From Candidatus Sungiibacteriota bacterium (GTDB lineage: Bacteria > Patescibacteriota > Minisyncoccia > Sungbacterales > SURF-37): a DNA stretch of 64,000 nucleotides. Positions 8,803-47,315 of the stretch are shown here, in pieces. How positions within the stretch are numbered: position 1 is the first letter of the stretch; each line of letters begins with the position of its first letter. Where the stretch lies: positions 8,053 to 72,052 of the forward strand of contig JACPMF010000010.1 of assembly GCA_016186145.1 (NCBI GenBank), written 5' to 3'. The notes under the pieces were generated by a model. That model did no database searches. It was given only the letters and a program-made list of their open reading frames with translations, and was not told the DNA's origin. Both the position numbers and the translations under genes were made by a program.

Positions 8803-8870
8803 AAAATGTACAACCGCACCGGAAGCGCTTGCGGTATCACCGTACCGCTTGGCGGTACTCGCGGTTGTTC

Positions 8871-9050
8871 ACCCAGCACATAAATTTACATCCGCCGTAT
8901 ATCCTAAAGCGTAAGGTATACAAGATAATTCTGAAATACAGAGATGGCCACTTATAAATTTATGTGCTGGGTTATTGTTTCGTAGCCGCAATCCACCCCA
9001 CACATAACTTATAAGTTATGTATGGGGTATTCTTGCGGACGAAACAATAA
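8871..9050. mobile_element. Composite palindromic element copy A (102-bp TIR unit plus bulged hairpin)
   Basis: acccagcacataaattta...taaatttatgtgctgggt followed by tattgtttcgt..acgaaacaata; paralog at 11067-11239. Confidence 0.75.
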
Positions 9051-9118
9051 AGTTTTCCACAATTTGGATTGTTTGCTGCCGGAAAACCATTATACTTAAT
9101 TGACAAGTAACAACTATA

Positions 9119-9352
9119 TATTATCAAGAGCGCGGTTCGCCCCGTTAGATAACTTAAGACCGAAAATATTTCCGAATACGCATGTCTAACTCATGACGAG
9201 CCACGTTGGGTAAATAATTTTTATCTAACGGGGTGAGGGCCCTGGCCCGTTGACCCGCCAGCAGCTTGTCTACGGTTAACCGTGATAAAGTGCTAAATCC
9301 AGCCTTGGTGCGCCGAAGCTTTATGCGAAGGCGACCCCTGGGAAAGATAACT
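9119..9352 (+). ncRNA. SAM-I (S-box) riboswitch with two hairpin insertions
   Basis: TTATCAAGAG..GG..GAGGG.CCTGGCCC..TGA.CC..CAGCA...GTGCTAAATCCAG...GAAAGATAA directly upstream of metK, followed by a terminator. Confidence 0.88.
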
Positions 9353-9355
9353 CAT

Positions 9356-9384
9356 CGCGTCTTTCCCCGGGAAAGGCGTTTTTA
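9356..9384 (+). terminator. Riboswitch-controlled terminator
   Basis: cgtctttccc-cg-ggaaaggcg-ttttt; its 5' arm can instead pair with gggaaagat (antiterminator). Confidence 0.8.
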
Positions 9385-9389
9385 ATTAA

Positions 9390-10442
9390 ATGCTATACAA
9401 TCCACATACTTATACGGTGGAAAGCGTCACTTCGGGACACCCCGACAAAATCTGCGACCAAATTTCAGACGCAATTTTGGACGAATGCCTCCGCCGGGAC
9501 CCAAAAAGCCGCGTTGCAGTAGAATGCTTCGGCGGCCACGGCGCTCTTGTTATCGGAGGCGAAGTGACGACATCGGCGCGTGTTGATTACGCCGACATCG
9601 CAAGAGAAATCTACGAGAACATCGGCCACACGAAAAACCTTAAAATAATCACGAACGTCGTTACTCAATCTCCGGATATTGCCCAAGGAGTTAACACCGG
9701 CGGCGCCGGAGACCAAGGTATTATGTACGGCTTTGCAACAGACGAGACGCCGGAATTTATGCCGTTTGCCGTCGTAAAGGCACATGCATTGGCCCAAGGA
9801 TTAGAGGCTCTCCGGAGAAACAATTCTCTGTTTTCATGGCTCAGCCCTGATGGAAAAACGCAGGTTACCATTAAAAACAGCAAGGTTAAAACAATACTTA
9901 TTTCCTGCCAACACGATGAAAACATCGAACAGGAGGAAATAAAACGGCTTTTGAAAGAACACCTTGTGGAACCGGTTATTGGAGATATTTCCAGCATTGA
10001 GATATTGGTAAATCCAACTGGTAAATTTACTGTCGGAGGATTTGACGCCGATACCGGACTTACCGGCAGAAAAATTATGGTGGATACATACGGCGGCCTC
10101 ATTCCCCATGGCGGCGGATGTTTTTCCGGAAAAGACCCGACGAAAGTCGACCGCTCGGCGGCGTACATGGCCCGCTTTGCGGCAAAAAATATTGTTGCAT
10201 CAGGAATAGCTAAAAAGTGCCTCGTATCAGTTGCATATGCCATCGGGCGGGCCGAACCGCTTATGGTAGAAATGATCAATGAAAAAGGAGAAAGCATTGC
10301 CGGAGCAATAAAAAACAACTTCGATTTCCGGCCCACGGCAATTATCGAACGCCTCAACCTCCAAGAACCAATTTACCTCTCTACTGCCGCATATGGCCAT
10401 TTTGGGAAAGAGGGCTTGCCTTGGGAAAAAGTTCTATATTGA
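9390..10442 (+). CDS. metK: S-adenosylmethionine synthetase
   Basis: ESVTSGHPDKICDQISD, GAGDQG, GLTGRKIMVDTYGG, GKDPTKVDRS. Confidence 0.98.
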   Translation: MLYNPHTYTVESVTSGHPDKICDQISDAILDECLRRDPKSRVAVECFGGHGALVIGGEVTTSARVDYADIAREIYENIGHTKNLKIITNVVTQSPDIAQGVNTGGAGDQGIMYGFATDETPEFMPFAVVKAHALAQGLEALRRNNSLFSWLSPDGKTQVTIKNSKVKTILISCQHDENIEQEEIKRLLKEHLVEPVIGDISSIEILVNPTGKFTVGGFDADTGLTGRKIMVDTYGGLIPHGGGCFSGKDPTKVDRSAAYMARFAAKNIVASGIAKKCLVSVAYAIGRAEPLMVEMINEKGESIAGAIKNNFDFRPTAIIERLNLQEPIYLSTAAYGHFGKEGLPWEKVLY

Positions 10443-45920: not shown

Positions 45921-47315
45921 TTGTTGAAACTATACAACTACCTCACTCGCAAAAAAGAAATCCTCCGGCCCATAAAAAAGGGCCGGGGTAGTTTATATAC
46001 CTGCGGCCCAACCGTGTATAACTACGCCCATATCGGCAATTTGCGGACCTATATTTTTGAAGATGTGTTAAGAAGAACCCTCGAGTACCACGGCTATAAA
46101 ACCCGCCATATTATGAACCTGACCGACGTCGACGATAAAACGATCCGCGATTCCAGGAAGGCAGGAAAAACGCTCAAAGAATTCACGGAATTTTATGCAA
46201 AGGAATTTTTTAAAGACCTCGCAAAACTAAATATACTGCGGGCGTTAAAATATCCGCGGGCAACCGCGCATATCCCTGAAATGATTGCATTGATCAACAC
46301 TCTTTTAAAAAGGGGTTTTGCTTATAAAACAGACGACGGGGTTTACTTCGACATCTCAAAATTCAAACGATACGGGAAGCTTTCCGGAGTCAAAAAACAG
46401 AACCTAAAAACAGGGGCACGGGTTGCCGCAGATGAATATTCAAAAGAAGAAGCACGGGACTTTGCGCTTTGGAAGGCGAAAAAACCCGGAGAGCCATCGT
46501 GGGAGGCATCCTTTAATTCGGGCGGCCCCGCCTCCGCTAAAGCTATGGCGGGCAGGCCGGGCTGGCATATCGAATGCTCGGCAATGTCCATGAAATACCT
46601 CGACAAATCTTTCGATATCCATGCCGGGGCGGTTGACCTCCTATTTCCCCACCACGAAGACGAAATCGCCCAGTCCGAAGGGGCGACCGGAAAACAATTC
46701 GTCAAATATTTCATCGAGGGAGAGCACCTTTTGGTTGACGGAAAAAAAATGTCAAAATCTCTAGGTAACATATATACGATGCGGGATCTAGCGGCCAAAG
46801 AATTTAACCCTCTGGATTTCAGATACTTTGCGCTGGGCGCTCATTACCGCACACAATTAAATTTCACATGGAAAGCGCTCGCAGCCGCGGGCCAAGCGCG
46901 AAAAAAATTGGATGATTTTATTCGGATGCTTGCCGAAGAAAAAAAACGGAAAGGCGTCGAGTTAAAACCCTGGAAAGATAATTTTCAAAAATCTCTTGCC
47001 AATGATATTGATACACCAAGAGCTCTTGCCGTCATATGGGATTTAATACGGGAATATAACAAAGCGCCAACCAAATTCGATCCTGCTGCTGTTAAAAAAC
47101 TGCTTATTGATTTTGATCGCGTTTTAGGGTTACGCCTTAAAGAAATCCGCAAGTTTAGCGTTCCGGAAAACATTCAAAAACTCGTCGCAATTCGTGAGAC
47201 GCTCCGCAAAGAAAAGCGCTGGCAGGAAGCCGACAAAATCCGCGAAAAAATTAAAAATTTAGGATTTGCTATCGAGGACACGGCCAAGGGGCCGCTATTA
47301 AGAAAACAACCATAA
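45921..47315 (+). CDS. cysS: Cysteine--tRNA ligase
   Basis: CGPTVY, HIGN, RPGWHIECSAM, FPHHE, KMSKS. Confidence 0.98.
   Translation: MLKLYNYLTRKKEILRPIKKGRGSLYTCGPTVYNYAHIGNLRTYIFEDVLRRTLEYHGYKTRHIMNLTDVDDKTIRDSRKAGKTLKEFTEFYAKEFFKDLAKLNILRALKYPRATAHIPEMIALINTLLKRGFAYKTDDGVYFDISKFKRYGKLSGVKKQNLKTGARVAADEYSKEEARDFALWKAKKPGEPSWEASFNSGGPASAKAMAGRPGWHIECSAMSMKYLDKSFDIHAGAVDLLFPHHEDEIAQSEGATGKQFVKYFIEGEHLLVDGKKMSKSLGNIYTMRDLAAKEFNPLDFRYFALGAHYRTQLNFTWKALAAAGQARKKLDDFIRMLAEEKKRKGVELKPWKDNFQKSLANDIDTPRALAVIWDLIREYNKAPTKFDPAAVKKLLIDFDRVLGLRLKEIRKFSVPENIQKLVAIRETLRKEKRWQEADKIREKIKNLGFAIEDTAKGPLLRKQP

Follow-up and report, generated by a model that had tools for sequence, protein, structure and literature searches.

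The window analysed here is a stretch of 64,000 nucleotides of Candidatus Sungiibacteriota DNA, from a genome of 0.98 Mb in 24 contigs. It carries metK on the forward strand (9390-10442), encoding an S-adenosylmethionine synthetase of 350 aa with Pfam domains PF00438, PF02772 and PF02773, and the metK leader is a SAM-I riboswitch; a Cys/Met PLP-enzyme gene and a palindromic-repeat cluster lie upstream. This nested cluster occupies 8807-9050, the interval that separates the upstream terminator from the metK promoter region, and has near-copies on at least seven other contigs. The original prediction, that the leader is a SAM-I riboswitch interrupted by a self-folding repeat element, is confirmed at the level of sequence.

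The interrupted SAM-I leader of metK

Every sequence landmark of SAM-I is found in the leader, along with a terminator and an antiterminator, all on the + strand; the base roles used here are taken from the established SAM-I structure and from PMC3064774. The 5' strand of P1 (9121-9125) pairs with 9346-9350, with the AUC/GAU pairs present, and is followed by J1/2 with its SAM-contacting G at 9128 (the segment as a whole being 9121-9130). Next come the 5' strand of P2a (9132-9135), which pairs with 9255-9258, and kink-turn position 3n at 9136 (together 9132-9136). Beyond the insert the aptamer resumes at 9235-9254 with the kink-turn G2n-A1n (9235-9236), P2b with its loop L2 (9237-9248), and the bulge with G1b-A2b-C3b (9249-9254). 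P3 with its asymmetric SAM-binding bulge was placed at 9260-9293 by Rfam alignment and folding; its GCAGC variant also occurs in genomes G023 and G789. The L2-J3/4 pseudoknot joins CUGG at 9242-9245 to the acceptor CCAG at 9299-9302 by Watson-Crick pairs at all four positions. The expression platform (9336-9383) consists of the 3' strand of P1 (9346-9350), an antiterminator formed by 9336-9347 with 9360-9371, a terminator (9357-9379) and a U tract. P1, the pseudoknot, P3 and the terminator/antiterminator, which had been described as intact, do all pair as claimed, and so do P2a and P2b.

Folding was carried out with ViennaRNA, which models neither kink-turns nor pseudoknots. Freeing the pseudoknot acceptor costs 1.3 kcal/mol, compared with a range of 0.1-1.9 in 24 switches. 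A possible pseudoknot decoy at 9338-9341 (paired at 0.79 in the aptamer) was judged to be nothing special, the cost being 1.3 kcal/mol in both alleles and typical of relatives. Nor was there a sign of an unusual bias towards the ON state: enforcing P1 costs 6.4 kcal/mol, and the values for 51 switches run from 0 to 14.

The insert is made up of GIY-YIG-associated repeat arms around a 68-nt interior. The spacing from P1 to the start of P3 is 46 nt in canonical SAM-I switches of CPR bacteria and 144 in the window, which gives an insert of 98 bp, with limits that are ambiguous by three bases (9137-9234 or 9134-9231). The inverted-repeat arms (9137-9152 and 9221-9236) are 16 nt long and 94% complementary. 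The folding energy of the insert is -36.6 kcal/mol, with a z of about -6 against 300 shuffles, while the interior alone reaches only -1.3, so that the fold signal stems from the arms. On a sequence-only profile built from 30 canonical CPR SAM-I switches, the intact leader scores 40.6 bits, a 96-bp deletion 51.6 and a 98-bp deletion 59.7. The inverted-repeat insert that had been proposed in P2 is thus present and self-folding, but it measures 98 bp and not the 96 bp (9139-9234) first given; its removal does restore a canonical aptamer when all 98 bp are taken out, whereas the shorter deletion leaves two bases over. The kink-turn had been placed downstream of the insert, and its GA letters are indeed kept there; 9137-9138 are, however, predicted to pair with G9235-A9236, and the motif is probably not simply intact. 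Its letters are canonical in the empty allele described below, and present but predicted to be captured in the filled one.

At the RF00162 gathering cut-off of 44.4 bits, no SAM match was found in the metK leader. In E-value mode the model can be laid over 9218-9353 along its full length, with a score of 39.2 bits, but only by mistaking the insert's right arm for the 5' strand of P1; the intact leader stays below the cut-off, which bears out the earlier suspicion that covariance models may miss interrupted switches. This full-length alignment could be taken to mean that the right arm now stands in for the original 5' strand and that a shorter aptamer has been rebuilt from 9221 onward, and 9221-9225 can indeed pair with the 3' strand of P1. 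This fold is, however, 10.6 kcal/mol worse than the true P1, with a probability near 0; it lacks the SAM-contacting G of J1/2, and no promoter-like site was found inside the 98-bp insert, nor upstream of it. We give such a rebuilt aptamer almost no credence. Taken together, the leader is like RF00162 in all core sequence landmarks, the pseudoknot, the terminator/antiterminator and its place before metK, and unlike it in the 98-nt hairpin on the kink-turn strand, the sub-threshold score and the predicted capture of GA. The empty allele differs at five positions in its first 46 bases from the relative G005, which scores 59.5 bits in RF00162.

A hairpin of a second repeat family lies inside P4 (9311-9333, + strand). 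It matches a strict pattern with eight copies in the genome (0-1 in five shuffles); a loose pattern has 42 matches (0-3 in shuffles). This family had also been reported inside cysS, a gene whose name is based on HIGH-like and KMSKS motifs. There is such a repeat family, and a similar copy does lie in frame inside cysS (46528-46549, - strand), but the two copies are linked by eye alone: the strict pattern catches the one in P4 and misses the one in cysS, and the loose pattern does the reverse. P4 hairpins resembling that of the window occur in G001, G023 and G030, so that the P4 insertion is either older or recurrent, and since P4 length is widely variable among relatives, the hairpin is an ordinary one. 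A similar hairpin is seen in the kink-turn bulged strand of G069.

The arm family and the empty allele

The arm core has 27 exact occurrences in the genome, and 29 inward arm pairs were found with one mismatch allowed, spanning 38-282 nt around varied interiors. A 2-bp direct repeat lies outside the arms in 15 of the 29 pairs and is TC or GA in 12 of those; one pair encloses a gene for an 86-aa GIY-YIG nuclease. We examined 30 loci, out of 32 matches, for the closest relatives of this nuclease in the order: both arms are present in 18 of the 30, and 15 of the 18 end just before GA. In coding elements the terminal GA also completes the stop codon, and the gene-less copies are therefore the cleaner evidence for a target preference. 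These sequences suggest that the arm family favours the step before GA, a step which the kink-turn strand offers as G2n-A1n. The GIY-YIG nuclease may be what mobilises the arm elements. Ten of the 18 arm-bounded GIY-YIG elements (loci L288-L317) are preceded by ATGA, and most finish with TGA at their right end, as would be seen if they had entered the start codons of host genes and left a 4-bp repeat.

The window insert shares a 13-nt match with the ends of the GIY-YIG elements (0/100 shuffles). A clear match of this kind was seen in two of 13 inserts (G000 and G006), with L209 borderline at 5/100 shuffles. To the left of the window copy stands TC and to its right GA, the sole inverted flank among the 29 pairs, and L209, a JGI contig, has the same arm family, flanks and riboswitch site around a different interior. 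Such a pattern suggests that the target was copied by fold-back or else that an already complete insert passed from one riboswitch allele to another. No second copy of the interior was found in its own genome or in 61 relatives, so no donor is seen; the idea that it is the decayed 3' end of a GIY-YIG gene found no support (1.5 bits on the family profile, a score reached in 27 of 300 shuffles). Neither the left arm nor the GIY-YIG protein gave a relevant match in scans of viral sequences. By eye, three arm pairs in G000 (C8:17867-17974, C8:130931-131149 and C9:19598-19849) enclose tRNA-like sequences, and two of these seem to be nested in another tRNA-like sequence.

Short palindromic selfish DNA within genes and structured RNAs, like the window insert, is familiar from Rickettsia palindromic elements, REP/REPIN sequences and MITEs. 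The present family differs from these in its heterogeneous interiors and in its enzyme, a GIY-YIG nuclease and not a Y1 or DDE transposase. The Ssn GIY-YIG nucleases with NTS/SRM repeats, as described in PMC11893778, have in common with it a small repeat-bracketed GIY-YIG gene, an insertion-sequence-like layout and many gene-less copies; here, however, the arms are terminal inverted repeats, and no match to the published SRM motif was seen in either the insert or the GIY-YIG element. What PMC3184786 mentions is riboswitch motifs located within repeats, and not the reverse case of an aptamer that contains repeats. A literature search, chiefly of open-access main texts, returned no paper on the arm-repeat family and no natural SAM-I k-junction.

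The locus is present in four groundwater DNA runs (X1-X4) of one study. The X3 assembly splits into two branches at 9073, which meet again at 9261. The filled branch is 189 nt long at a depth of 3.6, between flanks at 8.2 and 6.6, and the empty branch is one 91-nt contig at depth 2, which skips exactly 98 bases, restores a canonical kink-turn and carries two further differences from the filled branch, one of them at 9103. The other three runs hold the filled form alone. While slippage of a polymerase at the hairpin could mimic such a skip, the linked difference at 9103 favours a second strain. The insert may be a recent gain, or the empty form may have been regained by recombination. Pieces in X1, X3 and X4 that fall on window 9235-9342 come from the SAM-I of a second organism, a related switch whose kink-turn is canonical and whose P4 is similar in length.

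Since the empty form is seen as DNA, presence or absence of the insert is a DNA-level matter. It had been suggested that the insert is instead removed from the RNA, and one could imagine either splicing or RNase III cleavage that leaves a two-piece aptamer; a long terminal stem is predicted, and RNase III is encoded in the genome. Yet no match to an intron or any other Rfam family was found within the insert, and the joined form exists as DNA in X3. All self-splicing introns known to us are longer than 98 nt, and the termination decision is made co-transcriptionally. The suggestion of removal is thus not supported, and cleavage or splicing of the RNA strikes us as very unlikely.

Kink-turn inserts across the order

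A survey of 62 genomes of the order gave 29 SAM-I switches, 27 of them through RF00162 in 61 genomes and two more upstream of metK. Extra sequence of 19-98 nt, of several origins, is found on the 5' strand of P2 in 11 of the 29; it sits in the kink-turn in ten and just 5' of P2a in one (G054). A hairpin was predicted for all 13 inserts that were folded (ten of the order's 11, plus G195, L208 and L209). Four Watson-Crick pseudoknot pairs are present in all 11 switches with an insert, five of which have changed letters, and in 15 of the 18 without. The 3' strand of P1 is kept in ten of the 11 carriers, P1 being broken in G054. With more than a third of the order's SAM-I switches carrying a hairpin at or next to the same site, this site likely tolerates an extra branch. 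The comparison of metK leaders among relatives thus favours the earlier proposal that the switch tolerates a self-folding insert at this place.

The bulged-strand GA is lost in seven of the 11 insert carriers, G016, G030 and G032 among them, and in none of the 18 others (Fisher p = 0.0002, a value that is overstated since kin are not independent). Outside the order, at least five switches of family f59 have neither a bulged-strand GA nor any insert, which means that GA loss needs no hairpin. Position 1b is A in several of the GA-less relatives, and also in the E. coli TPP k-junction (PMC4005666). The k-junction order is present in the sequences of G195, G050 and G052. The Rfam cut-off is passed by two of the 11 switches with an insert against 16 of the 18 without; with nine of 11 carriers below the cut-off, compared to two of 18, SAM-I switches are undercounted in these bacteria.

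On a quick metK tree (L209 was excluded as too short, G006 lacks a metK row, and the G005 row is badly joined), 12 insert rows need nine changes, at least three of which are forced by well-supported branches, and the rows are unclustered (58/500 shuffles as low). A single ancient insertion, which we also considered, is disfavoured by this tree. In G006 no metK matched the query used; its insert-carrying SAM-I (L026), with a compensatory change in P1, precedes a gene of unknown function.

Outside the order, one of 33 switches examined (G195) has an insert of this kind, while three carry one on the bulged strand instead. These three (L272 in G069, L264 in G149 and L224 in G428) are hairpin inserts, two of which separate G1b from A2b, the place of the extra bases in TPP k-junctions. 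Rows G054, G408, G428a, G291, G128, G446, G376 and G654 were read by eye. A pattern scan of genome contigs gave mostly chance matches and five usable switches; a targeted metagenome scan gave 21 matches, four of which are riboswitches, namely L208, L209 and two that are identical to G195. Some further leaders depart from the standard layout in other ways. The metK leader L171 (G032) is a SAM-I whose kink-turn carries an insert of 41 nt and whose P3 has an extension of about 190 nt, and it gave no RF00162 match; L162 (G035), read by eye, is a collapsed-looking SAM-I at metK in which the P1 ends and the 5' motif of P3 are left and most of P2 is lost; and L244 (G486) and L245 (G789) are SAM-I-like leaders seemingly without P4.

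Probable working of the filled allele

In the ViennaRNA folds, the insert is predicted to form one self-contained hairpin, with P1, P3, P4 and the antiterminator unchanged. The antiterminator probability without SAM is 0.98 with the insert and 0.94 without it, and the gap between the ON and OFF states 8.5 and 9.0 kcal/mol. The effect of the insert is predicted to be local: 9235 and 9236 pair with 9137-9138 at 0.98 and 0.81, free kink-turn bases cost 4.1 kcal/mol with the insert against 0.7 without, the linker between the insert hairpin and P2b is 0 nt, and the 5' linker is UUC, with no spare GA.

In k-junctions, described for TPP riboswitches, rRNA J4/5 and DUF-3268 (PMC4005666, PMC10573300), a third helix leaves the non-bulged strand and stacks coaxially on the C helix. 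The window matches this arrangement in so far as its predicted third helix is on the non-bulged strand and abuts the C helix. It differs in that the G.A pairs of a k-junction (A1n, A2b) lie on the NC side, whereas here that side has a linker of UUC and GA lies 3' of the hairpin. In SAM-I the kink-turn serves to point L2 towards its receptor; according to PMC4316175, SAM binding is abolished by the A1nC mutation but not by G2nA, and it can be retained when a pk-turn takes the place of the kink-turn. Self-folding variable insertions are tolerated by many riboswitches (PMC2258182). The window insert resembles these in being a stem-loop added to an aptamer with a low covariance-model score, but it lies in a conserved tertiary motif and not in a peripheral loop, and its repeat-family origin and its empty allele can be identified.

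We suggest, at about even confidence and on the strength of the folding models, that the filled allele is a tolerated but weakened three-way-junction switch, and not a proper k-junction. The element would have entered because its family prefers the step before GA and the kink-turn strand supplied that step. The hairpin would stack on P2b without a linker, as in a k-junction, so that L2 can stay aimed at the pseudoknot acceptor; by capturing G2n-A1n, it would cause the true kink-turn pairs to be lost or contested, and affinity would drop. Failure would take the form of read-through with metK on, which may be cheap enough for the allele to persist. Over time, the inserts might shorten and the junction be remodelled, as may have happened in the relatives without a bulged-strand GA. 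Against this weakened switch counts the predicted capture of A1n with no spare GA at hand, given the loss of binding in A1nC (PMC4316175). If the insert is young, moreover, the intact core is uninformative on function after the insertion.

The insert could instead have killed the switch: with A1n captured, there would be no pseudoknot and no SAM binding, the antiterminator would win, and metK would be constitutive. The A1nC result and the pairing predicted for A9236 speak for this, as does the finding that the antiterminator prevails once the pseudoknot is mutated (PMC3064774). Several CPR bacteria have a short-type metK without a recognisable upstream riboswitch, which suggests that the regulation is dispensable, and the insert carrier G054 has lost P1 pairing. 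On the other hand, undoing the GA capture costs merely ~3.3 kcal/mol, and the seven relatives without a bulged-strand GA keep the pseudoknot, P1 and a downstream hairpin, so that three-way forms without GA have apparently been selected. A dead switch is, on balance, a minority view for us, though one to be taken seriously.

The same ~3.3 kcal/mol appears as a penalty if one supposes that SAM and tertiary contacts free G2n-A1n, with the hairpin extruded just 5' and the filled allele acting like the empty one. Both GA dinucleotides are kept, the filled allele is the sole form in three of four runs, and weak kink-turns, G2nA among them, are rescued by their tertiary context (PMC4316175). Stacking of the NC helix would, however, be expected to break if a helix lay between 3n and 2n, and we consider normal refolding of the kink-turn rather improbable.

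The weakened three-way junction leads to a wider, more tentative proposal, which we put forward as somewhat less probable than not: that in Patescibacteria, selfish hairpins linked to GIY-YIG nucleases have repeatedly hit G2n-A1n of SAM-I as a mimic of their target, and that selection has turned the results into working k-junctions and three-way junctions without GA, the window being a birth state that still segregates against an empty allele. Variable insertions in riboswitches are known, as reported in PMC2258182; new here are the exact insert boundaries, the empty allele, the link to the target site and the order-wide counts. The two natural alleles differ by the hairpin and two other letters, and the relatives represent graded later forms; such an allele pair and graded series allow the gain of a helix by an RNA motif to be put to a direct test with short transcripts. 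Among kink-turns, that of SAM-I serves as the standard model. To our knowledge, k-junctions are known from few RNAs, and their origin is unaccounted for. If the birth-state reading is true, these bacteria would hold a natural series from kink-turn to k-junction within one riboswitch class.
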